Shown piece by piece: positions 456-58,410 of a stretch of DNA of 64,000 nucleotides; position 1 is the first letter of the stretch, and each line of letters starts with the position of its first letter. Location: assembly GCA_030324005.1 (NCBI GenBank), contig JARDVH010000121.1, forward strand, positions 7,416,242 through 7,480,241. Direction: 5' to 3'. The notes below the pieces were generated by a model. The model did no database searches and had not been told where the DNA came from. It worked only from the letters and a program-made list of their open reading frames with translations. Position numbers and translations under genes: made by a program. This DNA comes from Negaprion brevirostris. Taxonomy: Eukaryota.

Positions 456-476
456 ATCTTGAGTCTGCGAAGAAAA
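456..476 (+). CDS. 21-nt phase-1 heptad micro-exon (xLESAKK)
   Basis: ttaactcgacag|ATCTTGAGTCTGCGAAGAAAA|gtaagt; consensus donor; same position in the repeat unit as its paralogues. Confidence 0.8.
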
Positions 477-742
477 GTAAGTGTATTGCTCCATTCGTCA
501 TTTCCTGATGATGAAAAGCTATTACTTTAGAATGGTCGTTAGCACATTTTTTGAGTGTTGCTGCTTAAAGTTTGTGACTAAACTGTTACATCATTCAGGC
601 TGCACAATGTGTCTTTGTTCGATTTACATTCTGTGCAATTGTCATAAAAGCTTCCCAATGTTTTTTCCCATTGAGTGTACAGCCACGTAAAATGCAATTC
701 CAAGTAAATTAATCTAGCCCGGATCTAATCGTTTTGGTTACA

Positions 743-1155
743 GATCATAGAACCCAACAGTGCAGAAAGAGGTCATTCGGCCCATCGAGTCTGTACTGAA
801 CACAATCCCAACCAGGCCCTACCCCCATATCCCTACATAATATGCCCACTAATCCACTCTAACCGACGCATCCCTGGACACTAAGGAACAATTTCTTAGC
901 ATGGCCAATCAACCTAACCCGCACATCTCTAGGCTGTGGGAGGAAAACGGAGTACCCGGAGGAAGCCCACGTAGACACGAGGAGAATGCTCAAACTCCTC
1001 ACAGACACTGACCCAAGCCGGGAATCGATCCCAGGAACCTGGAGCTGTGAAGCAGCAGTGATAACCACTGTGACACCGTGCCGCCTACCACTGCGCTACC
1101 GTGCCGCCCACCACTGTGCTACCGAGCCGCCCACCACTGTGCTGCCGTACCGCCC
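743..1155 (-). mobile_element. HE1-like tRNA-derived SINE with tandemly multiplied 5' end
   Basis: Minus strand has a tRNA-like head (...GGTGTCACAGTGGTTATCACTGCTGCTTCACAGCTCCAGG...GATCGATTCCCGGCTTGGGTCAGTGTCTGTG) and a CR1-like tail (GATGGGCCGAATGACCTCTTTCTGCACTG...TTCTATGATCT). Confidence 0.9.
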
Positions 1156-2012
1156 GGCAGAGTATGGGTACCTGGACACGGAATTACTTATGCATTTGAA
1201 AGCTCTCCGGTGTTTATCAATAAAACGAATATTATCTTGTGAATTAATTTTACCAAAAGAGATCAATTCACTTAAAAAAAATGCTTCTGTCATATTTTCC
1301 ATTAAATAACGCAAACACTCCAACGGACTTCTCGTGCTCTCCGCAGAACATTAATTTGCACATAATTTTGTCTCAGCAGAATATACATTTTAAAATGCAA
1401 TCGATAGGTTATAAGGGTGGCAAAGGTAGATGCAATATGACGTGGTCGAAAAGGACGTTGTACTGAATAACTAAAGGTTGACTAGTATTGCAAATTCGGA
1501 GATTATTGAATAAGATCTTTCAGGTAATGTTTTCGAATGCTGTTTTGATTGAGGTTTTTCATGTTTGGACGATAATGGTGGTCGAACATTTTCAGTATCG
1601 GCTCTTATATTCTAAGAATTTTAGCAAAACACTTTCAAAATGCCCTCCCGGTTTCAGCAAACGCTCGCACTCCAATGCTTTCCAAAAATAAAACACGACA
1701 GATTGGTGTATTGCTTACTCAATCACCTGTTTGAAATTAACACAGCGTATTTTTTTGTTTTTCATGGTCACAGTCGTCGAACCTGTAACTTCTAAAATTC
1801 ATATCAAACTGTCGGTAATTCAATTACCTGAGTAGTTTGATGGGGTGTCTGCAAATTTATTTATATTTTTCCTTAAACATTGAATGAAAAGCTGGCACCT
1901 GATTGCCCGATGCCTCCTCAAAATTTTGAATTTCCAGTCACTCAACTGTCTTGTTTGTGCATAAAATCGAAATGATTTATGATATTTAATTATTGCAATT
2001 TTATCCACACAG

Positions 2013-2033
2013 GCCTTACAAATACACAAAACG
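2013..2033 (+). CDS. 21-nt phase-1 heptad micro-exon (xLTNTQN)
   Basis: attttatccacacag|GCCTTACAAATACACAAAACG|gtcagt. Confidence 0.75.
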
Positions 2034-3439
2034 GTCAGTGTATTGCTCCATTCGCAATTTCCTCTTGATTACGGGCGTGATTTTGTGATGGTGAATAACA
2101 TCTTTTGAATCGTTGCCGCTTATTGACCGTGACAAATCTGTGATATTATCCCGCCTGCTCAACGTTTTCTTTTAAAAGAATGGACTATCTGTGCAACTCA
2201 AAGAAATGCTTTCCAACTTGTATATCCCAACCCGCTTGCAATCAAATAAAACAAAAATGATTTCCCGGCACATTGATTTACTTCTGTATTACTATGTTTG
2301 GGTATAAATACCTAGTTACCCGGATTCTTATGAACCACAGTGCTCTGCATATTTCTCAATTCAAATAATATTTTGTTTGTTAATTCGTTACACCAAAAGC
2401 GGCGAAAATCAGATTTTCCCGCATCTTAACCATCTCATTTGTTTGCTAGCACGTTCACATATATAATTCGACTTGTGTTCTCGTCGGAACAATATTTTGC
2501 ATCTATTTTTTTCTCAGCAAAAGAAAAATAAATTTTAATCTTCAAAAGACCCGTTTTAAGTTTCGCAGTGGTAGATGCAATATTATGTGTTTGAGAAGTA
2601 TTTTGTATTGAATAACTGTGTTGACGAGTATTTTCGAGCAATGCGATTCAGAACAAGTGCAGAGCTTATTGGGTAACATATTTCAAACGATGTTGTCGGC
2701 ATGTAGTGTTGATTGAGTTTTTTCTCGTATTTTTTTGGACTGCAATGTTTGTCGATTCTCTTCATTATCCAGAATGATGTGATCATAAACTCATAAGCAC
2801 GCTGACAAGTTACCGTCCCGAATTCGCCAAACACCGGCAGCTTAATTCTTTCCAAAAATGTCAGAAAAGCAAAGGAGCATGCAATATTACTTCGTTGATG
2901 ATAATTTGGATACTGCAACTTGAAATTAACAAGTATTTTAGAACAAACACACAGAACGAGTACAGAGCTTCTTGAACACCATCAAAAAATTGTGTCGACG
3001 TACAATGCTGAGCGATACATTTCGATTTCAGTGATTCACCTTAAAATTCGATGTTGAACTTATCATGCATTTAACAAAATTCTTGCACTCGAATTCAGCA
3101 AACGTCCACTGCACATTGCATTCCAAAATGACAGCTTTCATTGTTGTTTTCTGATTGTGCTCCTTGATTTTAATTAACTTGCTCTGTTTTTTTTTCCTTT
3201 TTGATCTCAATGGGGGAATCTGCACAGTCTGAATTTTACATCAAAATTCGCAAATACAGTTGCGTAGACATTTGAGTGGCTATGCCGAAATTGCAGGGAT
3301 TTTTTTCGGAAACATTTCATGAAGGGTTGCCCGATTTCTCGTCAAAATTGTTTTCATTCACCGACAGTCTTATGATTGGTACATTAAATCTCAGTGAGAT
3401 TAAAAAAAAACTTTAGCGATTTCACTTGTAATCCCACAG

Positions 3440-3463
3440 AACTTCCCAATAAAAAAAAACAAC
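3440..3463 (+). CDS. 24-nt variant of the heptad micro-exon (ELPNKKKQ), weak donor
   Basis: tgtaatcccacag|AACTTCCCAATAAAAAAAAACAAC|gtgacg; A-run expanded by 3 nt, frame kept. Confidence 0.5.
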
Positions 3464-4557
3464 GTGACGTGCGTTGCACGTACAACCATTTGCATTTGAT
3501 TTTGGCTTTTTTTGGTGAATGACGGCTGCTGAAAGGTCGGAATAAACCTATTATGTTAGGAAGCTTGACAAAGGTCATGCTGTCAGATTGTACAGCCTAT
3601 GCAACCGAAATGAAGAAAACAACATTTCCCAAATGTATATCCCATTTTGCTTGCAATTAAATAAAGTACACCCTTTGAATTCCTGCAACTTGATCTTCAA
3701 CAGGACCAACATCTTGAGAATTATGTAGTTGGGCACTGAGGCAATTATGAACCTCCGTGCTCTGCAGTATTTCTCAATTGAAATAATGCGTTGTTTGTTA
3801 ATTCGTTTCAATTGAAGGGGATACATTATCATTTGCCCACATTATATTAAATTTGTCATGTGTCTGCCGTTAACTTGATCACAATAATTGAAATTGTTTC
3901 TTGTCTTCCTGTCAGAAAATTAATTTGTACGTAATTTTCCTTCGACAAAAAAAAACGGCCAAATTGCAACTGATATTCTGTGAGCGCGTGAAACATCAAT
4001 TCTATATTAATTGGTCGATAGGTACTTTGAATACGATAACTTCAGATTGACAAAAGTAGCAATAAATTCAGATCAGTAATGAATGCAGAGCTAACTGATG
4101 CCTCCCTTTCACAGGACGGTAAAGGTACGCAGTGCAGACTGCGTGTTTGGACTGCAATCATTGTCGACTGCCTTCAGTGTTGCTATCAGAATTATGATAA
4201 ATTGAGTCATACCCTTCCATTATTCCCATCGGTTTCAGGAAAAGCCCGCTTATAGAAACATTGCACGATGACATATTGTTATATTCTTTACATATTCACT
4301 ACCGTATATTTAACGCACCATTTGTTTTCGTCATGCTGCCGCTGTTGTGTCTGTAAGAGCTGAAGTATCGCTAAAAAAAACTTGAGCGTTTGATTGTCTT
4401 CAAATGCTGATTTTGGCAGAAACGCTGATTGGAGCGCTGATATCTGATTGCCAGATTCATAGTCCAATTGTTGAATTGCGGGTCACTCTTCTCTCTTATT
4501 TATGCATGAAATCGAAGTTTGATGCAAAGTTTAACATATGCAATTTGAACCTCACAG

Positions 4558-4578
4558 AACTTAAGAAAACACAAAACG
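4558..4578 (+). CDS. 21-nt phase-1 heptad micro-exon (xLKKTQN)
   Basis: tttgaacctcacag|AACTTAAGAAAACACAAAACG|gtaggt. Confidence 0.8.
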
Positions 4579-5959
4579 GTAGGTGAATTGTACTATTCGT
4601 CATTTCACGTGATTATGAACTTATTTTGTGATAGTGAAAAACATGTTTTAAATGGAAGCTGCTTAAAGATCGCAACAAATCTATCGCTGGTAGGTAGCAT
4701 ATAACCAATGAATAACAACACTTTGTTTGAACTGGAAAAAAAACCCCTCAAATATTTATAGAGTTGCGCACTTGAAACTTAATGTTGGTCTATTGCTCGG
4801 ATTGCACAAGATGAATTAACATGCGCAAAAACGTAATTATGTGACCGAAACATGAGTAGAACAGATAAGAACAGAAATGGGAAAGAGGGCGTCTTGATGG
4901 ACGAATTTTATGATGAAACAATTGGTATGCATATAATCAGTACGGAACGCATGCATTTCATTTTCATCAGGCGGAGAAATAACATCTGTGAAAGTAGCTG
5001 AAATTAAAATCGTAACGCCATTGAGTAATGATCTGGTTTGCGCATCGCTGTCAATGCTTTTGCAACTTCTCTTCCGTAAATCGACCGCCATTCACTCCCG
5101 TCCAAGCTGGCGAGGGGTCGGATATTTTGAAATCCTTGCATTGCACTGACTCTCTCACGTATTAATTGAGCGACTCTCTGGAATCGTGTCGGAACACACA
5201 AAACAAGAACAAATGCAAATCTTAAGAAGGCTAGCTAGCAAGTGAAGCAACTCTTAAATANNNNNNNNNNNNNNNNNNNNNNNNNNNNNNNNNNNNNNNN
5301 NNNNNNNNNNNNNNNNNNNNNNNNNNNNNNNNNNNNNNNNNNNNNNNNNNNNNNNNNNNNTAAATATACAACATTTCCAGAGTCATGTACTGCCTCACAA
5401 ATTGCTGGCTATTAGAGTTGCTTAAACCAACTCGTTAAATGAACAATAATGGTCTGCAATGCAAACCATACAACGAATGAGTATTTCTAGATCTATTCAT
5501 GGGATGTGGTCATCGTTGATCATACCAATGTATATTGCTAAACTGAAATTGTCCTTTGTCGAACTGGCATTCTGGGTCACAGAAAATGGTTTTCAGGAGT
5601 TATGCATACGACTGGGTATGCAATCACATATAGCTCTGACGAGATAAGGAAGGCAGAATTTCTTCTCCAAAGGGCAATCACAGATTTTATGATAAACAAT
5701 AGTGTTTGAATGATCACCGTTAAACGTTGTGCCATTTTTTATTGAATATAGATTTGATAACTTGTATTGGTGTGATTCGACGTTTGCCCGCCGTGCTTAA
5801 CGTGGGGTCTCCTCCTTAGTTGTTTGTTGCCTTCCTTGAAAGAATATCAGAAATATATAAACGTGAAAATAAATCATCGAAAGTTTTTTTTTGCATTAAT
5901 AGCTATTGGGCGTTACGGTTATTCCCACAATTTGCTTGCTATCGATCAACAAGTTCTCC

Positions 5960-6612
5960 AACCATGTCAAAACATTGCCCCAAATACCATGAGCTTTAAA
6001 TGCGCACATACATCGCCTGTGTGGGAACTTATCAAAAAAAAAACTTTCGCAAGTCCAAATTCATGGCATCAACTTGTTGGTCCTTGTCCCTGGTCACATC
6101 CTCAAAGAGATCCGAAGTTTTGCCCAGATCGACTGTCTCTTAGTGAATCTATGCTGACTATTCTAATGGCTGCGCTCTTACCATGAGAAAGATGTTTTCT
6201 TACAAGTAAAAATAGATAATCTACTCATGAAGGAGCAGCCTTCCGAAAGATTGTGATTAATATAAAGTTGCCTGACCTTAAACTGGAATTCTGAGCCCTA
6301 TTNNNNNNNNNNNNNNNNNNNNNNNNNNNNNNNNNNNNNNNNNNNNNNNNNNNNNNNNNNNNNNNNNNNNNNNNNNNNNNNNNNNNNNNNNNNNNNNNNN
6401 NNACCAAAACTGCACACAACACTCCAGCTGAGGCCTCACCAGTGTCCTGTACAGTTGCAGCAAGACCTCCCTGCTTTTATATTCTATCCCCCTAGCTATA
6501 AATGCCAGCATCCCATTTGCCTTCTTGGTCACTTGCTGCACCTGCAGACTGGGTTTTTGTGACTCATGCACAAAGACCACCGGGTCCCTCTGCACTGTAG
6601 CATGCTGCAGCT
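5960..6612 (-). mobile_element. CR1 LINE ORF2 fragments (RT / C-terminal region), split by a gap
   Basis: ORF 6278-6652(-) QVQQVTKKANGMLAFIARGIEYKSREVLLQLYRTLVRPQLECCVQFW is typical CR1 ORF2 C-terminal sequence; older decayed piece at 5960-6200. Confidence 0.9.
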
Positions 6613-6859
6613 GCCCCCCCCCCCCCCCTTTATTTGGCTTGGTACTCTGCACGAGTTTGCCGGATGTCTCGTCAACTTACGAATTTTAAATGCAGTGTTG
6701 TTATGTTGGCCTCAGATGGTTGATCGTAACAAGTGGGAATGTGCAGATTGTTGCCTGGAATGTCTCTTTGCCCAAAGAAAAGGCTGCCTGTAGGCGAGGT
6801 AATTATGCAATAATTGAGTTGGTGTACGCCGTGTGAAATGAAGAGGTGTCCCCAAAAAA

Positions 6860-8650
6860 AGCGTGACGTGTTCTATTTTAAAAAATAATCTGTGCCTCGT
6901 TTCAGTTACTGCACTGACAGTCATATCCAAATGCGTGTCCATATACTGCAGCTGCCTTGCATATGCCCACACATTCAAATGGCTAAGTAACATGAGACAA
7001 CTCTTCATTCCCTTCACAACTCATCCTCACACCCAACTGAGTATCATGTGAAATTATGGAGGTAATTTATTCAGTTAGCACTTCGAAATCATTAGTATAT
7101 TACGTGCAGCGTTGGAGTCCTGCAAATATAATTATGGTGGCGCACAAGTCACTGCATACCATTCAGAAAGAGGCTCAATTATGTCAGCTGTTTTGCTTCC
7201 CATCTGCTAGCCAGCTTCTTACCCATCTCAAGGCACTGCCTGCAATCCAATGCATGTTAAATTTACATCATACCTTGTCAGGTGAGAACTTTTTGAAAGG
7301 TCAACAGTCAAAATAAACTACAACCAAAATATGCTTTAAGTTGTCGTCACTTTTGTAGCGAAATATGAAATCTCTCGATTGCAGCTGTTAGGGGTCTGTA
7401 TTGTTTTTTGCCAATTAATTTTGTTTTACATAGCAACATAAACATCTAAAGTCAGTTTTTATGTTCCGCTAGCTTACATTCATACTGTATTACCCTTTCC
7501 TAATTAATCCCTTGGTCCTCTTTTGCCGAATTTTAAACTGCCCACAAAAAATAGGGCGATTGCGTTTTCTTGACATTTTGAATGCTGCTTCCGTGAATCT
7601 GAAATTATCTATATTTTCCCTTGCAAACCCTGTGATTGAGCACAGTTACGGTTCCTTTGTCATCCCTAAGCAGAACAGGAAGAAACAACTTCCGGATTTC
7701 ACTACTTTCTTTAAATGCCTGCAATTGTCTATCCATTGTTTTTCCTTTGACTAATGTTTCCTAATATATCATGACCAAATCATATGCCATGCCACCATAT
7801 TTAGCTTTCTTATTATGTAGTATCCAGGTCTCCGAATCAGCTGAATCATTGTCCAACTAGGCAATACTTCTGCCATTTTGTGTTCACTCGTCCCAATAGT
7901 TCTGTCAAAACTAGTTTGCCAATTCATCCGTTTTCATTGCACTTTACCCTGTCTGCGATGGCCTTTCTCCTTGCATGTTCTTCAATGTATTGTTCAAGGA
8001 ATGCACTTTATCAATCCCTCCCCTATTTTGCTTGCACTATTTCGACTCGCCCAATCTATATGTCGATGAAATCGTTCATAATTATACATTTTACTCGAAT
8101 GCATGCATCTGTGAATTCTTATCCAAATATATTTTTTTTTTCCCAACGTTATGGCAACAGTTTTGTATTCTGCATACCACCTCCTGAGGCGTTTTATTTT
8201 GCCCGCTGTTGTTTCTTAAATCGACCTGTTAGGATTCCACATCACCTATACTAATATATTCCTCAAAACCTCATCAATATATGTTTTATTCAATATTGCC
8301 ACTCTGCCATTTTTTCTCTCTCCCTTATTCTAAACACTTAATAGACCTCAGTGTTAAGTTTACTTCCTTGGTCAACTTGGAGACACCACTTCAACGCTTC
8401 CATACCTCATTTTATCTACGTGGACAGCTAATTCATCGTTTTTGTTTCGAATGCTCTAAGCATTTGGATGCAAAATATTAAGGTGTGCCACTTTAACGGC
8501 TCATGTCCCTTGCATTCGAATTTTTATTCTATCCTTATATGACTCCGGCCATATCTTTTTTCTGCCTATTACTTTTCTTCTTCAGTTACCGTATTTAATT
8601 TTTCCTGTTCAGAACGCTTGGAAAGTTTCCCATAGCTTTGCCGTATTTCT
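6860..8650 (-). mobile_element. Old, heavily decayed CR1 LINE ORF2 (RT to endonuclease region)
   Basis: By-eye similarity to antisense CR1 ORF2, e.g. gtcactgcataccattcagaaagagg...ccagcttcttacccatctcaagg and ttgcactttaccctgtctgcgatggcc...ttcttcaatgtattgttcaaggaa. Confidence 0.65.
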
Positions 8651-9018
8651 GAAAACCTCCACAAAAAAAAACATGCAGACACTCCTTCTCTCCGGAAAGG
8701 ACATCAGCCCTGATCCAAAAGATCTCTCTCTCTCTCTCGCTATGCCTGCCTACATGTATAACCATCTATCAATCTATGTTTGCATGCACCGTTTTGCGTA
8801 TATCTCTGTGGTATTGTGTCATTCCGCAGAAAGAACAAAGAACGAGAGAATGGATATTACTTTATATTGGAAGGAAGTGGAATGAATATTTCCCAAAGTC
8901 GAGGCATGAACGCACAGAAAGACTTTTTTTTTGAAGTTCAGTCTAGTGTTGCCGCTGACACGATCCATTTGTGTTCGACCTCCGTTTCCATATGAGCATT
9001 TGTCTTCAATCATAATGA

Positions 9019-11665
9019 CTAACCATTTGCTTCACGCGATAAGGATATTAAAGGAACAAGATCGTCAGGGATCACCATCTCTGAAATAAAACAACAACCT
9101 AACAGTTACTTGATTGCTCAACATCAATCAGGCAGGGCAAATGATCGGGAATTAATGGAATTGTTGATACAAAAAAAAAATCTGGACCTTCCCTTCAAAA
9201 CGGTAGATGTCTCAAATTTCGAACGTGGAGAGGACTATCTGGCCATATACACATGTGAATAACAGAACACGTCTGATCAGCAGTACGGTCAACAAGTGAC
9301 ATACATAAAGATTGCTATTAACGATTGGGCATTTTGTTCGTTCCAGCCCCAGAGTCAGAAATAGTGATTCCAGAACTCAATTGAAGATAGCACACTTGGG
9401 GATGTTGTATATTCATACTAGAGCAGCGTTGGGAGTGTCGTTGTTTCTGTGGCTTATTGGGAGTTTCGCTTGCAGAACTTCAAAGAGCCACCAGCCTGTT
9501 ACGCAATTTAATGAGATAATTAATAAACTGGAAATACCCTGCTTTGTATTTCCACCTCTGTTTCAAAACGTAACATATCCTCATGAGCATTAAAAATATC
9601 GATACATTCATTCTCACTCGCCTTCATAGGTAACGAGTTCCAAAACCATATGACCATCTTAGTCAAAAAAAAATCCACATTTTAAATATGCAACATCTTA
9701 AATTGACATTGCGATCTCTCGTTGCATTTTCATGAAAAAAAAACTGATGTTTTCTCTGCAACCCGTAAACGGCCATGTTGAAGTTTCCGATTTCCGTCAC
9801 ATAACATCTATGCCGTTATTCTAAGAGTTGATATGAAACTCCTCAATTCAAAGTTCCCTCATGAGGCACACCGCTCTTTGTTGATAATATACAGACACAA
9901 CTCATCAGAGTACAATTATTGGCATGTTTCTTCAATTAAGGAAACAAATATTGTGCACCAGTGCTGGATTTCCAATCGGCCTCAACAGTGTCTTCTAAAC
10001 TGAAAAAAAAATCTTGTTGCATTGATATCAACGTTCCGGCCCAAAGGCAACACTCTTTCTGTTTTGCCTTTCATACGCGTGGATACCCAGATGTCCAGTT
10101 CCAGTGAATCTGTCTGCACAATTTCACCAGTTAGATAAGATTGTTTCAATACTTTTTTTGCACAAATTGGCAACTCCTCAAGTTTGCAATCCAATCTTTT
10201 ATACGTGAGACATATATTAATTGTCTAACCTGTCCAGATCATCAATGTTTGGTTATAAACGATCAGTCCGATCACCAGGGCACTCAATCGAGAACTCACC
10301 ATTATCATTTAGTGTTCTGTTTTCATTTCCAATGCTTTGATAACTCCATAATGAAATAATACATTTCCAATGTGTTGCACTCATCACAGTTGTAGCTCAG
10401 TGTTTCGTGTCAGAGATCCCCACAATGTCAGGGTTGTCGCCAAGGTTGAGTATTTAATTTCAGTTTGTGGCCATTTACTTCCGAGTGTTTTTCATTTCAA
10501 AAAAAAAGAAAAAAAAACATATTCAATATATTTGTCTTGCTCCATACAGAGGTGACAGCGTGCAAAAATGGAAAGGCATCTGTATCCATAATCTATTTTC
10601 ATTTTGAGGGTAGAATGGGAGATTCTGAACGCTTGTAACAAAGGATCTATCTGAAATGTCCAACGTAGTTGTTACATGTAAATTCATCTAATTCAGGTTA
10701 TGCATTAGCCGTGACAAGAGAATTGAAATTCGCAGGCGTTATTAATAATCGGTGCAACGCTGCTCATTTTGCAAATCGGTCACATGTTTAATGGACGAGA
10801 AGCAAAGAGTGCAAGCTTTGTTCAAAAACACACAGACGTGTCTGTTACGTTGCCTATTATCGAATAAGATGAGTAAGTTAGTCCACAGGTGTGCAACAAG
10901 GGATACAATGTGAACGCGAGGGGCAAAGACCTAAGTGGATTCAATCGAACGGAGAAGAAACGGTAGCGAAACATATTGCAAAATCAACAGATGAATGAGA
11001 TCGAACAGACAATTTATATTGGTTAGAGAGGCAGAAAAGTAGCTGAATTCTGGGACAGAAACGTTTTCCGTCATCCCATACACGAGAGAGAGAGAGAGCG
11101 ACAGACGAAAGGAGTGAGTGAGGGAAATAATTACCGGAAAATGTCCGCCCGAATAATTCTAACGGTCAGCAGAAATATAANNNNNNNNNNNTTTTTCTTG
11201 TGCTGTGTCTCGAGGTAATGCCAGTATTACGCTCAAACTCTATGTCGGCTTTCAAAGTATGCCCCGAGTAAAATTTCCGCACAGTTCTTTTTCACGTGTC
11301 TTTGTTATTCAAGGGCGTAAATCCTTGAGTGTTTTCTTGGATTTGCATTACTGGCGTTGAAGGAACTTCCCTTATTTTAGTGCAACCTGTAAGGGATGGT
11401 CAAGACGCTTGGCCTCACGAAGTAAAATGTATTGCTGTCATTTNNNNNNNNNNTTGCAACGAGCACGAAGACATCCCGGGCGAAACAGTTTTTTTTTCAT
11501 CTGATTAATTTGTTTTTGTTTTGGCATGTGGTTCGTGCAGGTTTATGCAAGAATCCAGCAATCATCAGGCCAACTCTTGCTGAACGCAATTCTACCAAAT
11601 TCTGGCAATTTATACGTGTATTCTTAAGAGTGCCTCTTCCGTAATAAATAGGTATAACTGCTATT
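9019..11665 (-). pseudogene. Decayed Ig-superfamily receptor gene, V(J)-C1-C1-TM-cyt (SIRP-like architecture)
   Basis: Minus-strand exon-like blocks with splice sites. 11665-11135: RINC...DVFVLVA..NDSNTFYFV (DxxxYxC-like, 11416-11442), TGCTKIREVPSTPV, T*KRTVRKFYS, LYFC, donor TCCG|gtaatt. 10650-10230: FCTLSPLYGARQIY*, YSTLATTLTL, **VQH, TM-like LSALVIGLIVY, donor ACAG|gttaga. 9080-9019: EMVIPDDLVPLISLSREANG*. Junctions are phase-1 compatible; many stops and frameshifts. Confidence 0.45.
9600..10200 (-). mobile_element. Decayed CR1 3' fragment
   Basis: Antisense CR1 3' motifs (gggtaacgagttccaaa..accatcttagtcaaaaaa; ggcctcaacagtgtcttc; ggcccaaaggcaacact). Confidence 0.5.
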
Positions 11666-12580: not shown

Positions 12581-12581
12581 T

Positions 12582-12583
<2 letters not shown>

Positions 12584-47889: not shown

Positions 47890-49350
47890 GATTGCAGGAC
47901 CACATAAGTCCCTTCCGCCCTTCCAAACCCCGCAACTATCATGTCACCGGACAGAAATAAAGATTCTTGCCCTGCCAGTAATCATATCCCTCTATTCCCA
48001 CCAAATGCATGTATATGTCAAGACAACTCTGAAACATCAGGATCGTATCGGCTTCCATTATCTGCGCTGACTGTGTAGTCCAGGCACCAACCACCCTCTT
48101 CAAAAAATAAGTTTTGAACCTCTACTTCACTGCTTGCCCCGCGCATCATAAACGTGTGTTCCCTCGTAATTGAAATTTCCACCCTCGCAAACATCTTCTA
48201 ACGATACACTCTGCCCAAATCGTCTCATAATCTTGTTGACTTCAATCAGTCCCTCCTCAATCTTCGGTTTGCCAGTGGGAACAAATCAGGTTTCTCGAAC
48301 CTCGCCTCAAAGTTAATGTCCTCCAGATCAAGATGCATTCTGGCAAATCTTGTCTGTACCGTTTAAGAAATATCCATCTTCTTTTGATAGTTCAAAAATC
48401 AACATTACATTCCAACTCAAGACTAATTCAAGTTCTATAAAGCTGCAACTTGACTCGCCAATTATCACACTCAGTGCCACGACCGATGAAGAAAAGCATG
48501 TAATATGAATTTTTGACTATCTTATGCACAAATGTTGCCACTTTCAGTGAACTAGTGTACCTGCACAGACAAAACGCTCTGCCTATCAATATCTTTATAC
48601 GTTCTGTGATTTTCTCTGCCTTCTCATCTGTTCGTCCTTCGAAAATGTGATACCTCACATTTGCCTGGTTAATCCAAATCTGTCAGCTGTCTGTCCATGT
48701 CTCCAACCGATGCTTTGACGGTCCTCATCGTTATCTGTAATTCCATCAACCTTTCTGTCATCTGCAAACTTACTAATCAAAACAGAAAACAGTTGATTTG
48801 CCTCCATATGCAGAAACAACAAAATCTCAACACTGATCGCTGTGGAAAGCAACTTGTCACTGCCCTCCATTCAGAAACACACCTTTTCATGGGTACCCTC
48901 TGATTTCTACGACCGAGCCAGTTTAGTATCCATCTTGCCAGCTCACCAGTGATCCAGTGTGACTTCAACTTTTGTACTATTCCGACTGGGGGGGCATTTT
49001 CCAAGTCCTTACTTATATCCATGTAAATAACATCCAGTGCCCTACCGTCATCAGTCATCTTAATCACTTCTTCGAAAAACTCGATATACTTCGTGAGACG
49101 TGACTTCTCCTTCTTCGTACCATGTTGCCTCTCGGTGATAATTCCACTTATGCCCAAGTGCGAGTAACTCCTATCTCGAAATATCTTCTCCAATATTGTT
49201 TCTAACACTGACGCAAGGCTCAGCTACATGTGATTAATTGTATTATCTCGCATTTCATTCAGAACAAAGAGACAAAATTAGCAAAGACACGCCAATCCTC
49301 TGTGACGTCAGCTGTAACCAAATGATACACAGATTTCTTTCAAGGCCCCA
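47890..49350 (-). mobile_element. CR1 LINE 3' ~1.4 kb (co-duplicated at 56265-57470 and 59095-60530)
   Basis: ORF(-) RALDVIYMDISK..KLKSHWITGELARWILNWLGRRNQRV; LISKFADDRKV. Confidence 0.9.
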
Positions 49351-50927
49351 GCAATTAAGTCGTTTGCCTCGCGCAGATCAAGTTATTTATTTATTTATTT
49401 TCTTCATGGTCGTTGATTGAGGGAAGGATAATGTTTGCTTTACAGTGTGCAAGAATTAATTACTTGACCCAATTCAAATATTTAGCTCTGTGATTTATCC
49501 ATAGCATTATAGAAATTGCAAAGCCCTACTGCGCAGAATACGCCACATGCTCCAGATTGCGCAGTCCCTATTTAACAGAATTACTCATCCTGCTCCTCTC
49601 CCTGTAATCCCACACACGTTTCATGAGTGATCCCATGAAACTTACACATTTTGGGACATGGCTTATAAATGCTGCACGGCCAGTTCACCTAACTGGCAGA
49701 TTTTTTTTTAGATACACATCGTTAATTAACAACGAGTTGGCATAATCTCTATTTGGATACAACCTGTGCTGCGACTTTACACATATTGGATGAAGATCAA
49801 CCTGTGTTTCAGTATTTTTTTTTCTCATCCAGGGAAATATTCGGAATGATTTTGGGACTGCTGAACAGGAAGTAGATTTTTTTTTCAGCCAAGAATGAAA
49901 ACACCAAATGCAAAAGAATTAGTACAATACTTGGAAGGTGGTGTCAACGCAGGAAAGACAGAAAGGTGTGAGAAATTCAGAAATAGAGTCGCAAAGTCAC
50001 CTCAATATTATAACAAACATATATATTTCGACAAAAATAGTTATATAGGTTGTGCGGCAGGTTTATCAGACTGGCCAACTCGCAGATGCGTGAATACTAA
50101 AATTTAAATTTGTAAATTATGAGACATTAAGGAAATGACCAACGGATGCTTAAAAAAAAACTTCATCTCGGGACAGACAGATGGCGTTGAGCAGGGAGCA
50201 ATTGAGAACAGTTTCAACATGATTCATTTTTTTTTCCTGCAAATGTTGACGAATGTTCTCAGCTCAGATCAAATGTAGGGGACTTAAAACTCCGCACTTA
50301 AACAAGGGGACCTCGTTACACGCTATAATCACAAACTGGAAATTCGGGAACGGTTTCTGAGAGTCGACATATCGAAGTTCCTTGAATTACCGTATGTCTG
50401 GAAATTGATGTTGCCACTTCTGATTCTTAATAGTGCAGGATAAATGATGCCGCTCTTAATTCAACACTCTGGCAGTCATGTTGTTCCCGACACAACTAAA
50501 TGACGCTGCAGCCTCTCAGGCCTAACTCAACCTACTCAATAAGTGAGAGCAATGCAAATCATTATGGTGTTGTAAATGCCAGAACATCGGAAATGTTACA
50601 TTGACATCGATCATTTTATCTCTGTTGAAAATGTGTCCCTCATATCACGATAACATTAGCGATGATATGATGCTTGATTGATCGGGGAACAGTGCAATAT
50701 GACTAGTTTGTAAATAATTCCTGGCGAATGTGATGCAAATCCGTTGTGCTGGATTAAAAAAAGAACTGTTGTGAGCCATGTGATATGAAGCTCCACCATT
50801 TATCTGTTGATTCATTCAGTAAAGTTCAGTCGAAGACATACATTTTCAGTCGTTGGGTTCAGGTTGATTTCCTTAGCAAAATCTAATATCTGCAAAATAT
50901 TCTTACTAAGTCTTTGATTCCTCACAG

Positions 50928-50948
50928 ATCTCACAAAGTGCCAAAGTG
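50928..50948 (+). CDS. 21-nt heptad micro-exon, type B (DLTKCQS)
   Basis: tctttgattcctcacag|ATCTCACAAAGTGCCAAAGTG|gtaagt. Confidence 0.82.
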
Positions 50949-51539
50949 GTAAGTTAATAACAACATGTTTTTTTTTTGCATATCTGAATTAAATCGGGAG
51001 CGCCAGGACTGTTATGTGAAATGTACTCCCGTCAATTAGAATAACAACATTTTTGTTCTGCATACAAATATTTGTAGTACCGAGCGAGTCCAGTTTGTGA
51101 ATAATTTTGCCTGAATTCTGCCTGAAAATTATCTTGCCTTTATTAAAGAACAGTCAAGTCGCCGAATTGTTTTTGAATGCATTGATATCACGATCGGTAT
51201 GATCTTGGCAGAATGTTTAACTGATACATCAATGGAACAAAGCTGAATGGAGGCTTGTATATAATGTATATAACGCCAGAGACTGAAGTATGCTAATATA
51301 TTAAATTTCATGGAGTGATTTGAAACAAATATTTATCGTCACACATGACCAACAACAGAAAACAGAAAGGTGTGAACATTGACAGACAAAGTCGCAAATT
51401 GGCTTTAAAATTGAACATCGTTCAATTGGACATAGTTGGAAAATTCATTGAATCTGCACAAATCTCTATCCAGGACAGAGTGACAGAAACATATTTATCA
51501 TTGAGGGAGACAAGAGAAAATATCTCACCACACAACTGT

Positions 51540-52050
51540 TGAATATGGAATTCCTCCTAAATACATTAAACACATTTCTCTCGATCCACCTGTAACATTA
51601 TGACTGTCTCAGTCAATGTTGGGAAAGTAAAAAATTCCCTACAATGACAATCCTACTTTTCTTCCCGTAATCTGTAATCTTCTTTCATCTCTGTTCCTCA
51701 TTTTCATGCTGGCTAATTGGGGGCATATATTGCAAACCTTTCAATATGATCCCCCTCCTCATTCTCGAATCTACAAAACAAAAGAATCAGCGAGCGAACC
51801 CTCGGATGTATCCCCTCTCAGTTATGCTGTGATGATTTCCCTGTTCAAAAGTGCAACTCCCTCTCCTATCTTACCTTCTATTCTATCTTTCCCACAGCAT
51901 CTGTACCCTGGAACATTGAGCTTCCAGCTTGTCTCTCCCCCATCCGTGTTTCAGTAATAGCTATAATAGCCCAGTCCCATGTGCCCATCCATGACGTGAG
52001 TTCATCTGCCTTGCCCGTCAGGCCTACTGCACAAAATGAATACGTTTTAA
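51540..52050 (-). mobile_element. CR1 ORF2 endonuclease fragment
   Basis: GLTGKADELTSWMGTWDWAIIAITET (APE endonuclease N-terminus). Confidence 0.85.
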
Positions 52051-52534
52051 GTCTGTAAATGACATGCACATTCATTTTAAAGTGAGGGACAAGAATGGTA
52101 GACGTAGGGAACTTTCGATGAAATGGTATATTGAGGTCCTGTTCAAAAGTAGATGGAGGCATATGACACATATAGAAAGCTGGAAACAAAAGAATCCCTT
52201 GAAGAGTATAGATAACGCAGGAATCAGAATAAGATAACAATCAAGAGGGCAAAAATTAGGAACGTGATTGCTTTGCGAGATAAGGCAAAGGAGAATCCAG
52301 CGAGCGACAATAAATACACGCAGGAGAAAAGAGCATCACGGGAGAGCATGCGGTCTCTGAAAGATTAACAATAACATTTAAGTGCAGGTGTGGAAGCGAT
52401 GGGTGATGTCATAGATGAACCTTTCTCATCAGCATTTATTGTTGCAAAAGTGATGAGCGTTAGGGGCAATTTGGAAAAAAAATGATGTTATGATGAGTTT
52501 ACATATCACACACAGGTTGGAGCTGGAAATCATA

Positions 52535-53205
52535 TCGCAGAGTGACATGAACCCAAGATCCCGATTCAGGCCGAGTTCATGTGTGCGGAATTTGGCAATC
52601 AATCTCTGCTCAGAGACTGTGCGTTGCCTTGTGTCCCAGAGGCCACCTTGGACAACGCTTCCCGGAAGAACAGAGGCCAAATGCCCATGACGACTGAAGT
52701 ATTCCCCAACAGGAAGAGAACACTCTTGCCTGGTGATTGCCCAGTGGTGTTCATTCATCCGATGTCGTATCCTCTGCATAGACGCCCCAATGTTCCATTC
52801 ATCGGGACATCATTTTCCGTCGCCTATCAGTTAGACAACCTTGGCAACGTGTATTTATCATTTACCTGGTGGATGGTGTTCTCACGTGAGATGATGACAC
52901 CCATGCCGATGATCTGGAACGTCTTGCAAAGGTTGCTGTGGTACGGTTGTGTGGTGTCGTGGTCACTACTCTCCTGAAGGCTGGGCAGTTTCCTGTGGAC
53001 AATGGTCTGTTCGAGGTTGTACAGTTGTTTGAACGCAACAAGTGAGAGTGTGTGGATGTCCTTGACGAGATGTCTGTCTTCATTAATGACAGTTTGAAAG
53101 CTCGGTAGAAAATGTAATGGCTTCTCAGCTTGGGCAACTACTGGACAACGAAGGGTACTCTCTCCATTGCGTCCCATGTTTGTATTCTGAGCAGTTCGAT
53201 GCTGT
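52535..53205 (-). mobile_element. Penelope-like element 3' end (GIY-YIG region)
   Basis: RIRHRMNEHH..ECSLPVGEYFSRHGH..RQRTVSEQRLIAKFRTHELGLNRDLGFMS; LVAFKQLYNLEQTIV..CKTFQII. Confidence 0.85.
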
Positions 53206-53391
53206 TTCGTACTTGTGCAGAAGGATAAATAGCATTTCTTCGCCTGAGGAGTTGTAACGGAAAACCTCAGTAAAATGCTACCTAGCTCTGGAAGGCAATT
53301 ACAACGCTAAGACAGCAAAAACACGAATCGAGAAGTTGTGTAAAGCTGGCTAAGGCTGAAGAGGAGAAAGATTGTCTGTACGCTGATGCAA

Positions 53392-55314
53392 GTAAGGAAT
53401 GCGAGACATAGAGATGAACAGTTAACTGCTGTGTCTGAGTTCTTCAAAACAAATGAGCAAAGAGGTCGTTTTTAAACAACAGCTGGTTATAGTCGTGGAT
53501 AGAAATGTGGAGGAATCAGCAGTCATATGTGAATAAGCTGTTGAAAAATTAAGTAGAATGTGCAATTCTGAAGAGCATCTCTCTAGCAATCATAACCATC
53601 TCGAAATCTATCGCGTGCCTGGAAAATCTAAAGGGATAAATGCACTTAAAGCACATTTTCGAAATTCCCCTGGATCCTGTGACAAGCACAGTTTTTGTTT
53701 GTATCGAAAAAATATTGAACTCCGTGCCATGAAAACCAAAATTTTATTTCAAAATTTTTCCCCAGTGCGAACATCTAAATATAGGAAATTGAAGCAGGTG
53801 TATGCCATTGGGTCATTCGAGCTGCTCTGCCATTCATTTTGATTATGGGTTATCATCAAAACCAGCACCGTGATCCTCCTTCAATCCATAACCCATGAAC
53901 TCTTCAACCCCAAGAGCTGTATCTAAATTCTTCTTGAAATCAGTCAGACTTTGGGCCTCAGATGTATTCTGTGGCAAAAACTTGTGCAACATTCAACACG
54001 CTCTGTGTGAAGGAATTTCTTCTCACTTCCATTCTAAAACGGGTATACCCATTATCCACGTACTTGTCCCCCAGTTCTGGACTCCTCACTATTGGCAACA
54101 TTGTTTCTGAATCCACCATTTATAAGCTATTTTTGAATGCTTCGATGAGATCCTCTTCCACTCGATTGAACTCCAATGGATATAATCTGAATCGATTTAT
54201 TCTCTCCTCATATGACAGACCTGCCATCCACAGGATCCGCCCTGCACTTCTTCACCGTAAACTCTCTGCATCTGGGCCGTCCTTCCTCATATACAGAAAC
54301 AACAACTGTAAGCAATAAACCAAGTGTGGCCTCGAAAGGCCCAAATTGCTAATCGAGCATATTCTCGTCTTCAAGGATTACACAATCTCAGAAACTTCTA
54401 ATATGACAATCTGCCAACAGATGGATATCTTGACTATCTGTCTAACGGTGTTTTAGAAATGTATATGATCTCGGAGTGTGAGCTGTCGTTCTCTCTTCAC
54501 AGATTTTTTTCAGACATATTGTGATTATGGCACATTGCATTTGCTTCTCCTACTTTTCCTCCTTTAAAACAAAGAGACAGTTTCCAAGATTTCACTTCCT
54601 CTGACCCCAAAATATTTAATTACCTGCATGGCATGCTCAATTATCCACGGAACTAGGGGACATACATGAGAATAATGGGTATACCTTTTAGAATGGAAGT
54701 GAGGACAAACGTCTTCACCGACAGAGTGTTCAATGCTGTGTACGTCTTTGCCACAGACTGAATCTGAGGTCAAACGTCTAACTGATTTCAAGAAGAATTT
54801 AGATATAGATCTTGTGTTGAAGTGTTCATGGCTATGGATGGAAGGCGGATCACGATGCTGAGTTTGATTATCAACCATAACCAAGATCAATAGCAGCGCA
54901 GCACGATAGACCCAATGGGCTAAAACTTTTCATGTTTAGATGTTGTCACGGGGGCAAAATTTTGTGAATCAAAATTTGATTTTTGTGGCACTAAGTTCAA
55001 TATTTGTCGATCCAAAAAAATGTGCTTCGTCTCGGGATCCCAGGGAATTTCGAGAATTTGCTTGGAGTACATTTGTCACTTTAAATTTACCAGGGATATT
55101 ACATATTTCAAGACCGTCATGCTTGCTTGTGAGGTGTTTTGAGAATTGTACAGGTTACTTCATTCTTCAACAGCTTATTCACATATGACTGCTGATTCCT
55201 CCACATTTCTTTTTCACGAATGCAACTAGCTTCAAAAAAAAACACTTTGCTCAGGTGTTTGAACAACTCAGGCACAACAGTTAACTTTTCATCTCTATTT
55301 CTCGTATTCCTTAC
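53392..55314. repeat. Second copy of the long inverted repeat (arms ~53392-54074 / ~54652-55314)
   Basis: gaaatgtggaggaatcagcagtcatatgtgaataagctgttgaa vs ttcaacagcttattcacatatgactgctgattcctccacatttc (long exact complement). Confidence 0.92.
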
Positions 55315-55748
55315 TTCGATTTTCCACAGACTGGAGGATGGAAATTATGCTTTAGTGTAACTTCTGGAGATCTTCCCTGTTATTTACTTATGTGGATGGA
55401 AATCAAATTCATAACACTACACAATGAAAATTCTGAGTATTTACCTGTTGTGATAGTTTGAGTAGTAATTAATGCATATATTGGATCTTTATCATCCACA
55501 CCCAAATAAATGTACGTCCACCAAAGTAACATGCCAATGTAATTCCTCATAAGTCGTACAGGAGCGGACCAACGACAATATCTTAACCACACAAAATACT
55601 CTGATGAAAATGCAATGCATTTTAGCATCTTTTGAATCAATTTTCAAAATTGGATTTTGCAATTTCCTTTTCTGTTGTATGGGTAACTGTGACTTTTGGG
55701 AAAATGGATTCAACAAAATGGTTATTAATGTTGCCCTCGATGACCTAG

Positions 55749-55769
55749 ACCTGAAAAAGTGTCATGAAG
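55749..55769 (+). CDS. 21-nt heptad micro-exon, type A (DLKKCHE)
   Basis: gttgccctcgatgacctag|ACCTGAAAAAGTGTCATGAAG|gtaagg. Confidence 0.8.
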
Positions 55770-56264
55770 GTAAGGAAGATTTAAACTGAATTATTTAATT
55801 TCCCTAAAATTGTTATTGTCTGTTTGTTGGCAGCAATGGTCCCTGCCATAACAATTCGCATTGCTACCCACTGTGCCGCCTGTGACAAGTTGGCACATTT
55901 GTTAGCACTATTCCCTCACGGCACCAGGGAACCATATTCGATTTCGGCCTCGGGCAAAAGTCTGTGTGAAATTTATACATTCTTCCCGTGACTGTGTGGG
56001 TTTTCTCCTGGTACTCTCGTTGGTTCCAAATCTCCAAAGATGTGCGGGTGAGGTTGATTGGCCATGGTATTTTGTCTGTTAGTGTCAGCGTAATTTGCAT
56101 GGTAAATCCATGCCGCTCCGATGATTCCAAGATTTATCTGTGCATGTTCTGGTTCTGCACTGTACGAATTTCATAATTGATATATCGTAACGTTAGAAAT
56201 CTCTAATATACAACAGTCAAAATTTCAATCAGTTATTCATATAGACAACAAAATACATAAATGA

Positions 56265-57470
56265 AAAAGAATTGGAGCGCAGGATAATGTTATTCGGCCC
56301 TTCTAAGGCTTGCAGCTATCATGCCACCGGACAGAACTAAAGTCACCTACCCTTCCAGGAATCCTATCCTTTTATTCTCATCATATTCATTTACCTGTCA
56401 AGACAATTCTGAAACATCAGGATCGTATATGCTTCCATTATCTGCGCTGAATGTGTATTCGAGGTACCAACCACCCTCTTTAAAAAAATAAGCCTTGAGC
56501 CCCTCCTTCTCACGTTGCCCCGCGCACTGTAAATGTGTGTCCCCTCGGAATTGACATTTCCACCCTCGCAATCATCTTCCAACGATCCACTCTGCCCAAT
56601 CGCCTCATAATGTTGTAACTTCTGTCATGTCGCTCCTCAATCTTCGTCGTGTCAGTGGGAACAAACCAAGTTTCTGGACCCTCTTCTCATTGTTAATGTC
56701 CTCTAGTTCAGGATGCATTCTGGAAAATGTTTTCTGTACCCTCTCCAAAGCATCCACATCCTTTTGGTAGTTTGGAGATGAAAATTCAACACTACATTCC
56801 AACTGAGGACTAATTAAGGTTCTATAAAGCTGTAGCATGACTTGTCAATTGTTAAACTCGCTGCCACGACCGATGAAGGCAACTGTGCCGCATGAATCCT
56901 TGACTATCTTATGCACAAGTGTTGCCAATTTCAGTGACCTAATGTACTACACAGCCAAAACCCTCTTCTTATCAATATCTTTAAAGGCTCTGCCATTTTC
57001 TCTGCGTTTTCATCTATTTGTCCTTCGAAAATTCAATACCTCACATTTGCCTGGTTAAGCTCAATTTGCCAGATGTCTGTCCAGTTCTCCAACCGATCTT
57101 CCGACAGTGCTCATCGTTATCTGTCATTGCACCTGTCTTCCTGCCATCTGCAAACTTTCCAATCAAATCAGTTGGTTTCCCTCCCTATTTATAAAAAGCA
57201 AAGCCTCAGCACTGATCAAACTGGTACGCCACTTGTCACAGTCCTCCATTCAGAACTGCACCGTTCAACTGGCACTCTCTCATCTGTGACCGATTCAGTT
57301 TAGTATCCATCAGGCCAGCTCAAATCCGATCCAATCTGACTTCACCTTGTGCACCGGCCTGCCTTGAGGGACAATGAAAGAAGCAATACTGACGTCCATG
57401 AAAACAACATCCATTGCCCGACCCTCATCAGTCAACTTTGTCACTTGCACCAAAAATGTGTGGCCTCTTC
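56265..57470 (-). mobile_element. CR1 LINE 3' fragment (duplicate)
   Basis: MLQLYRTLISPQLECSVEFSSPNYQKDVDALERVQKTFSRMHPEL. Confidence 0.9.
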
Positions 57471-58389
57471 CGGCCCAGATTAAAGATGAAAATTTCTACA
57501 CTTCAGTGAATATCACTTTAATCGATTACGGCTCTCCTCATTCAACAGACCTACCGTACAGGAATCAGCCTGAAAAAAAAAGTTTGTTGACTTTGAGAGC
57601 AAGGACGTTCTAGCTCGTATTTAGAAAGCAAAATTGCACGCAATACACAATGTGTGGCCTCCAACGGCCCAGGTTAAAGATGAAAATCTCTGTCGTCTCC
57701 AACGATCACACAACCGATGAAACAAAACGACATTTGGAAAATATCACTGTGTCACAAAATTTACAGGTAAAAAGCCATTTCATCGGTGTTCTGGATGGCA
57801 TATGATTTAAAATAATGAACTGTCCTCTCTTCACAGACACTGGCATGCCTGATGGGTTTATCCCACAATTTATTTTGCTATTTGTTTTAATAATGTATAT
57901 TTCAAGGCTTTAAGCTGCTGGAACCCAAAACATTGGATTACTCTGCAAGCACGCCCAAAACTCCATCTTCACTTTTTCATTTTGGAGGATGTTTTGTTAA
58001 AATTTGTGGGGATCTTCCATTTTCTTAAATTATGTGGCTGGATTTCGAACGATTACAGAGAGGATTGTGAGTACTTATAGTTCGTTACAGTCGTTTTTAT
58101 TAAAATAAAATCATACATTGGATTTTATAATGCACACACTAAATGGCGTTATGTCCACCAAAGTCTTGTATCACTATAATTACTCGTTAGTCGAATAACA
58201 GCGACCTGATGAAGATATTTAAACTCACAAAATACTCTTATGAAAACGCAATGCTTTCTTGGCAACATTTTCGATTTAATGGCCGAAATTATATTTTGCA
58301 ATTTGCATTTCTGTCGTTTGAGTTATTGGCATTTGGGAAAAATTCATTGACCAAAATGCTGAGCAATTTCTCCCTCCTCCATCACCTAG

Positions 58390-58410
58390 AGCACAAAAAG
58401 AGTGCTGATG
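58390..58410 (+). pseudogene. Inactivated type A micro-exon (EHKKSAD; donor GT to TT)
   Basis: ccatcacctag|AGCACAAAAAGAGTGCTGATG|ttatgg; both the Leu and the donor are lost. Confidence 0.7.

Follow-up and report, generated by a model that had tools for sequence, protein, structure and literature searches.

Heptad micro-exons multiplied by duplication in Negaprion brevirostris: part of a probable giant coiled-coil and B30.2 gene of cartilaginous fishes

The window, the 64,000 nt of Negaprion brevirostris contig C121 analysed here (C121 position = window position + 7,416,241), carries on its plus strand an array of micro-exons that each encode one heptad. Family A is represented at 456..476 (xLESAKK, 21 nt, phase 1-1, donor score 4.5), 2013..2033 (xLTNTQN, 21 nt, donor 2.4) and 4558..4578 (xLKKTQN, 21 nt, recognised by AG/GT, length and frame). 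The later exons, all of 21 nt, are supported by splice sites and by the duplication blocks that hold them: family B1 at 26135..26155 (xLKKRTD), 40015..40035 (xLKKKTE), 47364..47384 (xLKKSAG) and 55749..55769 (xLKKCHE), and family B2 at 27711..27731 (xLTKCKS), 41630..41650 (xLAKCQT) and 50928..50948 (xLTKCQS). A preliminary description had listed 12 copies, and all 12 positions hold when the sequence is rechecked, as does its statement that ten exons are 21 nt, phase 1-1 and stop-free; each lies between YAG and GT. It was also right that 58390..58410 is a dead B1 copy (donor TT, Leu lost), but it missed one more dead copy at 10550..10570, where the donor is GA. The 24-nt family A copy that it took for a live exon is correctly placed at 3440..3463, but it runs up to a weak GT (donor -1.3), contains Pro and an expanded A-run, and is without the donor kept by its family; it is probably decaying.

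Several counts above chance confirm that these micro-exons are real and code for heptad units. The phase-1 frame is free of stops in all ten 21-nt exons, against stops in five of the ten in each other frame, and donor scores, from a consensus matrix typed from recall, range from 2.4 to 7.3. A splice-site filter blind to frame returned 11 matches of length 21 on the plus strand of the window, nine of them array exons, with none of that length on the minus strand and between 0 and 5 for every other length from 9 to 60; over 264 kb the same filter gave counts of 22 versus 4. Codon 2 is Leu in 16 of 23 exons and codon 4 is Lys in 18, while Cys stands at codon 5, three residues past the codon-2 position, in 8 of the 23. 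Contigs from one DNA sequencing run cover the exons at 40015, 41630 and 55749 with 0-1 differences per contig, the first of them unchanged. This run behaves as DNA, with no exon-to-exon joint among the 15 joints listed (there are 37 further joints), and may be the source of the assembly.

That the array grows by duplication of exon and intron together, as proposed earlier, is borne out by duplicated blocks within and beyond the window. Self-comparison reveals tandem segmental duplications at 26015..60792 on the plus strand, in which 26015-30488 matches 39880-44366 at 78-80% identity and 44862-49069 matches 53204-57446 at 78%. Frame-neutral phase 1-1 micro-exons of one heptad each have been multiplied through such blocks, and some copies die through donor loss. 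The further proposal, that exons are conserved and introns are not, stands for splice sites, length, frame and the L/K/C codons but fails for raw identity, which between paralogous exon copies is 0.62-0.81 in the later families and 0.38-0.76 in family A, no higher than the 0.48-0.85 of the flanking introns. At the L/K/C codons pN is 0.15 versus a pS of 0.49, and at the remaining codons 0.33 versus 0.34; these values come from 10 pairs that are not independent and exclude family A.

The array reaches past both window edges, to about 30 candidate exons over 294 kb at an average spacing of about 10 kb. Upstream candidates with the micro-exon pattern, all on the plus strand, lie at -147119, -122756, -94611 and -91458, at -62255, -60471, -59241, -52033 (33 nt) and -48568 (30 nt), and at -40954, -40541, -27137, -5176 and -3824; downstream candidates on the same strand lie at 69704, 72270, 73892 and 98551 (weak), and the weaker ones on either side may be chance. 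Downstream there are also a dead copy at 70261 and candidate 27-nt exons at 116178 and 146722, again on the plus strand. A 15-nt candidate at -97127 sits, by eye, in LINE-like sequence and is not part of the 30. No large exon is found among the window ORFs between the two exon groups, so the window likely holds one gene and not two, as had been allowed. The entire window (1..64000, plus strand) would then lie inside one gene, with the array continuing on both sides.

Searched genome-wide, an AG + 21-nt LxKC exon + GTRAG pattern gave 19 matches versus 5 in a reversed control, and 9 of the 19 fall at this locus. A second LK pattern was uninformative (9 matches versus 6), and the matches to a broad LxK pattern were mostly chance (85 versus 62); on C121 the LxK pattern found zero exons from 7.49 to 9.51 Mb. 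At C121:9.50-9.52 Mb, 2 Mb downstream, there is a second array, and paralogues occur on other contigs, including a 75% identical copy on C150. The second array and contigs C1314 and C30399 contain further micro-exons, and scans of these three found no convincing large exon.

The array is positioned within a cluster of divergent B30.2 exons. The six best C121 matches to divergent B30.2 all fall at 6.2-11.0 Mb, around both arrays, and in a tree of 47 rows six local exons group with nine protein rows (eight named chondrichthyan proteins and one fragment of unspecified source) in a 100/100 clade, apart from canonical BTN and TRIM. The earlier attribution to a cartilaginous fish is borne out by a nearby B30.2 exon, which shares 74% identity with a Scyliorhinus protein. 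In RefSeq, members of the clade go by 'TRIM39-like', 'TRIM58' or 'zinc-binding protein A33-like'. Those of chimaera, sharks and rays consist of a long coil plus B30.2. A scan of 14 clade proteins (eight named genes with isoforms, plus fragments, in models whose 5' ends may be incomplete) found SPRY/PRY and no Ig, RING or B-box, and the same scan detected V-set and C2-set_3 in a Stegostoma BTN control. The best 19-residue hydropathy in six proteins tested is at most 1.59, with no clear TM. Ig/TM exons could be missing from family models with incomplete 5' ends.

The candidate 3' end is the B30.2 exon at C121:8,311,392, which we infer to be linked to the array; the nearest same-strand clade B30.2 lies 748 kb beyond the last candidate exon. 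Phase-1 micro-exon candidates precede the 8.31-Mb exon, with no LxKC-type exon in the 18 kb upstream of it, and for two other clade B30.2 exons the preceding 4-5 kb showed no micro-exon. What resembled a first exon with a signal peptide, at C121:8,304,750, proved to be the acceptor tract, rich in T, that belongs to a 24-nt micro-exon. Such a tract mimics a signal peptide at window position 27680 too, and the artefact could affect the hydrophobic N-termini of chimaera and skate models.

A [DE]LxxC heptad is specifically common to the array and the local B30.2 clade, a likeness at the level of motif and not of alignment. The chimaera protein P0162 (a 1,722-aa model) contains 12 such motifs versus 0.5 in shuffles, with none of 200 shuffles reaching 12, and when 132 B30.2 proteins with 300 aa or more are ranked by [DE]LxxC content, the top six are all of this clade. 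One P0162 heptad equals the unit of exon 73892 save for one residue. Around 17 motifs, hydrophobic residues recur at i-7 (0.65) and i+7 (0.76), with all non-heptad offsets at or below 0.35. In a stricter first look, the chimaera coil found no match among the large exons of this genome. Word-based protein searches returned the same chimaera gene alone for that coil, no match among longer proteins for the 8.81-Mb B30.2, and four matches, one of them in the clade, for a B30.2 alignment. The 7-residue exon profile also puts an unrelated salmon coil first. Isoforms and versions of the family genes in RefSeq differ by blocks of 6, 9 and 12 residues, as expected for micro-exon skipping.

We consider it fairly probable that the locus is a giant, length-tunable gene for a coiled coil with B30.2, from a cartilaginous-fish family without Ig, RING or B-box. 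It would span at least 294 kb and possibly about 1 Mb, with the window in its middle. Joined by splicing, the micro-exons would encode a long coiled coil of parallel chains in which position a is Leu, d is Cys or a small residue, g is acidic and e is mostly Gln, Lys, Arg or Glu; this rod would oligomerise chains and bear B30.2 binding heads at its far end. The TRIM coil and the butyrophilin tail likewise oligomerise and hold B30.2 heads. Because each module is seven residues in phase 1-1, rod length could be tuned without a frame break: duplication, loss or skipping of modules would alter it and leave frame and helical register intact. Its job would most likely be to serve innate immunity or ligand sensing as a multivalent adaptor whose reach can be tuned. 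A cytosolic product has slightly better than even chances and a secreted or lumenal one slightly worse; in the latter case the core Cys would cross-link chains. A more far-reaching version, which we regard as doubtful, sees in cartilaginous fishes an undescribed family of coiled-coil rods that are secreted, disulfide-stapled and tipped with B30.2, originating from a butyrophilin-type gene without Ig/TM, one member being a ~1-Mb gene with as many as about 100 micro-exons, in which skipping sets reach. The Ig/TM exons would have been lost and the former cytoplasmic tail routed outside the cell; the frame would survive since those exons are all phase 1, and the product would be an extracellular multivalent recognition molecule.

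The preliminary description had proposed a BG- or butyrophilin-like gene whose Ig and TM exons would lie upstream of the window, and had suggested looking for a B30.2 exon downstream. Kinship with the B30.2 superfamily stands, but the 100 kb on either side of the window (18% N) yielded no exon for IgV, IgC, TM or B30.2, the array itself runs to at least 147 kb upstream, and butyrophilin Ig exons lie elsewhere. It is still conceivable, if improbable, that this is a membrane protein of that type. Its IgV and TM exons, and any IgC exon, would then be hidden in gaps or farther upstream than 147 kb, and the array would encode a cytoplasmic tail to which a B30.2 may or may not be attached. In favour, phase 1-1 agrees with the exons of the Ig superfamily, one canonical BTN of this genome has a 27-nt exon ahead of its B30.2, the 5' end is beyond the region covered, and N makes up 17.8% of the 264 kb read. 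Against this, no Ig family appears among plus-strand ORFs of at least 65 aa (139 upstream, 130 in the window, 109 downstream), and proteins matching the array motif are without Ig. Genome-wide, 55 candidates for the BTN IgC profile (PF22705) yielded 24 matches, none of which lies beyond 2.19 Mb on C121, and 65 candidates for a BTN IgV query yielded 31, on C121 only at 1.66-1.73 Mb; the canonical butyrophilins lie on another scaffold, mostly C84. The 5 Mb upstream on C121 contain no PF22705/BTN-V match to an IgV-IgC ectodomain, with assembly gaps a caveat, and no V-set was found at 6-11 Mb among the 150 of 927 candidates scored. The hydrophobic register differs too, at codon 4 and the last codon in BG (PMC5938342) versus Leu at codon 2 and Lys at codon 4 here.

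About equally improbable is a B30.2-less offshoot, or another coiled-coil gene such as a tetherin-like one or a lectin neck with a disulfide-linked coil, amid the B30.2 cluster. The Cys spacing recalls extracellular disulfide-linked coils, no B30.2 lies within the 748 kb, and the C150 scaffold with the paralogue has no clade B30.2. However, the heptad motif is specific to array and local clade, and the 264 kb contain neither a lectin family nor an exon that convinces as TM or GPI signal. At -83372, a hydrophobic ORF that matches Pfam Orf78/DUF is a trinucleotide microsatellite, and a TM-like ORF at 94289/95787 is without an acceptor, inside a 95%-identical duplicate flanking assembly gaps. PLVAP, which marks the tetherin locus (PMC10617486), gave a single PV-1 match at C150:12.33 Mb, not beside the array. 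Finally, a decaying or silent relic, its splice-like sites kept by inheritance of duplicated blocks, is very unlikely. Four copies are dead or decaying (3440, 10550, 58390 and 70261), raw exon identity is at or below that of introns, and counts are small; yet with blocks 20-30% diverged, the ten live window copies are all still 21 nt long, open in frame and bounded by AG/GT, and their Leu codons vary synonymously. A crude neutral simulation, which ignores ascertainment of copies, put the probability that 9 of 11 copies stay intact at P = 0.005 to 0.0002. A paralogue retains an intact version of the copy that is dead at 70261, which is what birth-and-death in a live family would produce.

BG and BTN already exemplify the principle of heptads encoded by 21-nt exons, and the present case is a variant of it. 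Enterophilins of guinea pig (a long heptad leucine zipper and B30.2 without Ig) and the secreted B30.2 vespryns of snake venom, both likened by description, belong to other lineages. Chicken BG genes (BG0, BG1-BG13) likewise encode a long coil in many 21-nt heptad exons whose first codon is split and whose number differs from gene to gene, and have some Cys (PMC5938342, PMC4046983); PMC5938342 gives their tails 27-37 exons, mostly of 21 nt and a few of 18 or 24, and PMC8813856 describes IgV and TM without B30.2. Unlike BG, our locus has no IgV/TM found in the region covered, a different register, exon spacing of ~10 kb and a likely B30.2 end. Butyrophilins, which according to PMC12841164 occur in cartilaginous fish too, share the order of phase-1 heptad micro-exons, 27-nt exon and B30.2, seen here in a canonical BTN and in the 8.31-Mb clade gene, but they have IgV-IgC-TM and a few heptads, and the B30.2 of those in this genome falls outside the clade. 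TRIM-B30.2 proteins (TRIM39, TRIM58, A33-like) share a coiled coil followed by PRY-SPRY; by contrast, none of the 14 clade proteins has RING or B-box, and their B30.2 forms a separate clade. RING and B-box are also absent from the ORFs of the 264 kb, a region that stops short of the 5' end of this gene.

Closest are automatically named models from other chondrichthyans: XP_042192744 and XP_007898089 (Callorhinchus, 1,697 and 1,722 aa) and XP_038671249 (Scyliorhinus, 945 aa) combine a long heptad coil containing [DE]LxxC with a clade B30.2, and XP_055510696 (Leucoraja, 295 aa) a long heptad coil with one. They are probably the family of this gene, with putative orthology, although the block differences among these models are 6, 9 and 12 residues and not 7. 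The salmon XP_045550229 type (signal peptide, giant coil and PRY-SPRY, of similar size, with several isoforms and Atlas clusters of 55-137 chordate members) has its B30.2 outside the clade, is not among the [DE]LxxC-rich proteins, and is possibly a parallel invention.

The gene looks like an undescribed relative of the butyrophilin and TRIM immune genes. If so, B30.2 would occur in a third architecture besides those of TRIM and butyrophilin, one belonging to the oldest lineage of jawed vertebrates, and the case would bear on how BG-type heptad tails relate to BTN tails. Genes of the family would now be mislabelled as 'TRIM39-like', 'A33-like', 'myosin-2 heavy chain-like' or 'nuclear-pore anchor-like', and a gene of hundreds of kb would be invisible to ORF-based annotation, its exon birth and death caught midway.

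All twelve micro-exon sites of the preliminary description proved to be correctly placed in the window, and ten of them are, as had been claimed, 21-nt exons of phase 1-1 with YAG at the 5' side and GT at the 3' side. None of the ten contains a stop in the phase-1 frame, versus five of ten in each of the other frames. When a splice filter blind to reading frame was run over the window, a length of 21 gave 11 plus-strand matches, nine of them array exons, and no minus-strand match; other lengths from 9 to 60 gave 0-5 matches each. A profile built from the ten exons added one degenerate copy at 10550, with GA as its donor, and no minus-strand position in the window scored above 2. The 24-nt element at 3440 is present where it was described; its donor score is low (-1.3 versus 2.4-7.3 in the others) and the family donor sequence is gone, so we count it as a decaying copy. 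The proposal that the array grew by duplication of exon and intron together was borne out, the window being made up of tandem exon-plus-intron blocks that are 65-88% alike. A 1.6-kb repeated block (35555-37229, 44806-46481 and 53206-54828), which has inverted copies inside and looks like an old transposon, travels with the duplications. Degenerate repeated intron segments lie at 12052-12576, 18213-18392, 20672-21523, 48272-49069, 56642-57446 and 59175-60242, and look like 3' ends of CR1-type LINEs. The interval 13800-15400, richer in GC, holds long ORFs on the minus strand and one of 87 aa, without a Pfam match, on the plus strand; it is probably a retroelement remnant.

The expectation that exons would be more conserved than introns held only in part. 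Paralogous exons are not above introns in raw identity, which counts against a naive coding reading; splice sites, length, frame and core codons are what is conserved. Live exons show no indels and keep their splice sites. Of 23 exons, 16 have Leu at codon 2, for which six different codons are used, 18 have Lys at codon 4 and eight have Cys at codon 5; these counts are partly circular, some exons outside the window having been chosen for being open. At the Leu, Lys and Cys codons pN/pS was 0.15/0.49, versus 0.33/0.34 at the other three codons, on the basis of 10 non-independent pairs with exon family A excluded. Judged from the sequence, the micro-exon array is real and well supported, and purifying selection is acting on exon length, frame and coil core while surface residues drift freely.

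The array does not end with the window, which occupies C121:7,416,242-7,480,241. Over the window plus 100 kb on each side, the splice filter gave 22 versus 4 matches at length 21, with further exons both upstream and downstream, and paralogous 27-nt exons lie downstream at 116178 and 146722. Across the 2.69-Gb genome, an LxKC exon pattern had 19 matches versus 5 in the control, nine of them at the window's locus, and takes the array upstream to -147 kb, the part from -147 to -100 kb being covered by two 600-base pieces only. There are thus 30 candidate exons over 294 kb, spaced about 10 kb apart. In the downstream flank (93026-95923), a near-identical (95%) 1.4-kb tandem duplicate with flanking gaps is probably an uncollapsed haplotype. 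A second array on the same contig and strand (C121:9,509,382-9,519,353) comprises five heptad exons of 21 nt at intervals of 1.7-4 kb, and its introns have no homology with the window's locus beyond repeats. Paralogous micro-exons occur on another scaffold (C150:41,103,600-41,104,400) and on the small unplaced contigs C30399, C1314, C8238, C79894, C2942, C15291, C16599 and C71506, which points to a family with several loci or to unassembled parts. Those on C150 and C30399 are 75-79% alike, and one is the intact version of a copy that is dead at the window's locus.

In the preliminary description the array was read as the tail of a BG or butyrophilin-like gene. BG genes have an IgV domain, a TM and many 21-nt exons, and butyrophilins have IgV-IgC-TM, few heptads and a B30.2 domain (PMC5938342, PMC4046983, PMC8813856); butyrophilins are also present in cartilaginous fish (PMC12841164). 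BG exons are hydrophobic at codon 4 and the last codon (PMC5938342), a register different from that of the array. The IgV, IgC and TM exons predicted upstream were not found in the scanned 100 kb, nor was a B30.2 exon in the 100 kb downstream: Pfam recognised no Ig, SPRY or lectin family in the plus-strand ORFs that were 65 aa or longer (139 upstream, 130 in the window, 109 downstream), and a splice-site scan of window and flanks, 17.8% of which is N, revealed no convincing large exon. The positive control, a gene on C84, had its V, C, TM, 27-nt and B30.2 exons all recovered. Genome-wide, butyrophilin IgC and IgV matches fell mostly on C84, with none on C121 beyond 2.2 Mb; a general V-set search was weak (150 of 927 candidates scored). 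C84:85-101 Mb, probably the MHC-linked TRIM/BTN region, holds a large cluster of exons for SPRY, IgV and BTN-IgC, with a canonical butyrophilin among them. A tetherin locus was also considered; its marker PLVAP (PMC10617486) sits on C150 and not at the array, which rules it out.

What C121 does contain is divergent B30.2 exons, with SPRY matches at 6.23, 8.31, 8.81, 8.85, 10.36 (a copy with a frame change near a 10-N gap) and 10.95 Mb. Used as a genome-wide query, one of them returned all six within the top seven places, the other being on C84 (93.46 Mb), a copy not among the tree rows. Among the best 150 of 1,763 matches in 1.84 billion protein representatives, the closest single-domain matches were models from chimaera, sharks and rays that carry the names TRIM39-like, TRIM58, A33-like or nuclear-pore anchor-like. 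In a tree of 47 B30.2 rows, the six exons group with nine such proteins in a single clade (100/100), separate from BTN and TRIM, and the partner of the 8.85-Mb exon is a Scyliorhinus protein (74% identity); midpoint rooting and an outgroup drawn from the search matches mean that no succession of events can be read from the tree. Of the clade proteins, 14 were scanned; all carry SPRY/PRY, and none has Ig, RING or B-box. The longer ones look like heptad coils in their N-terminal parts. It is precisely these proteins that are marked by the array's typical [DE]LxxC heptad: the six richest of 132 B30.2 proteins of at least 300 aa were all clade members, and the 1,722-aa chimaera model (Callorhinchus XP_007898089) has 12 copies versus 0.5 expected, in a hydrophobic register of seven residues. 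With a broader exon profile specificity was lower, and a salmon coil ranked first. The gene models of family members differ, between isoforms or annotation versions, by blocks of 6, 9 or 12 residues. Ahead of the 8.31-Mb B30.2 exon, which begins in phase 1, lie candidate exons of 24, 36, 21 and 27 nt, a 3' layout like that of BTN.

Neither end of the window's gene turned up in the DNA covered. The nearest same-strand clade B30.2 lies 748 kb beyond the last candidate exon. At the observed spacing this distance would take about 70 exons, a number roughly consistent with the 600-odd residues that separate the B30.2 of the chimaera protein from its main LxxC block. No exon was found with the LxK pattern in that interval, nor with LxKC in the 18 kb upstream of the 8.31-Mb B30.2. 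From sequence comparison, the window's gene is probably a giant member of an unnamed coil-plus-B30.2 family. The literature searched, mostly non-subscription papers, describes neither this family nor an array of this kind in a cartilaginous fish. Salmo salar XP_045550229 and chordate Atlas clusters of long coil and PRY-SPRY proteins (scores 0.93 and 0.91), all automatically named, include teleost proteins with a signal peptide, a giant repeated coil and a canonical PRY-SPRY, similar in architecture but belonging to a different B30.2 clade. Enterophilins and vespryns are possible leads for comparison.

Of six clade-family models tested, two have a hydrophobic stretch of 11 residues at the start, and a clear TM is seen in none; T-rich acceptor tracts mimicked signal peptides in our own scan, so that secretion is hypothetical. 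Were the protein secreted, cysteines of the core would be expected to staple chain to chain. Cysteines are found in cytoplasmic coils too, as in the BG tails described in PMC5938342. The sequence itself reveals frame-neutral heptad modules, born by block duplication and dying by donor loss. Spliced together, they would make up a coiled coil of parallel chains in which position a is Leu, d is Cys or a small residue, g is acidic and e is mostly Gln, Lys, Arg or Glu, and this coil would carry B30.2 heads. PMC8813856 describes B30.2 as a domain that binds ligands, and the TRIM coil as a means of oligomerisation. The product would likely act multivalently, as a sensor or an adaptor, with exon number setting its length.
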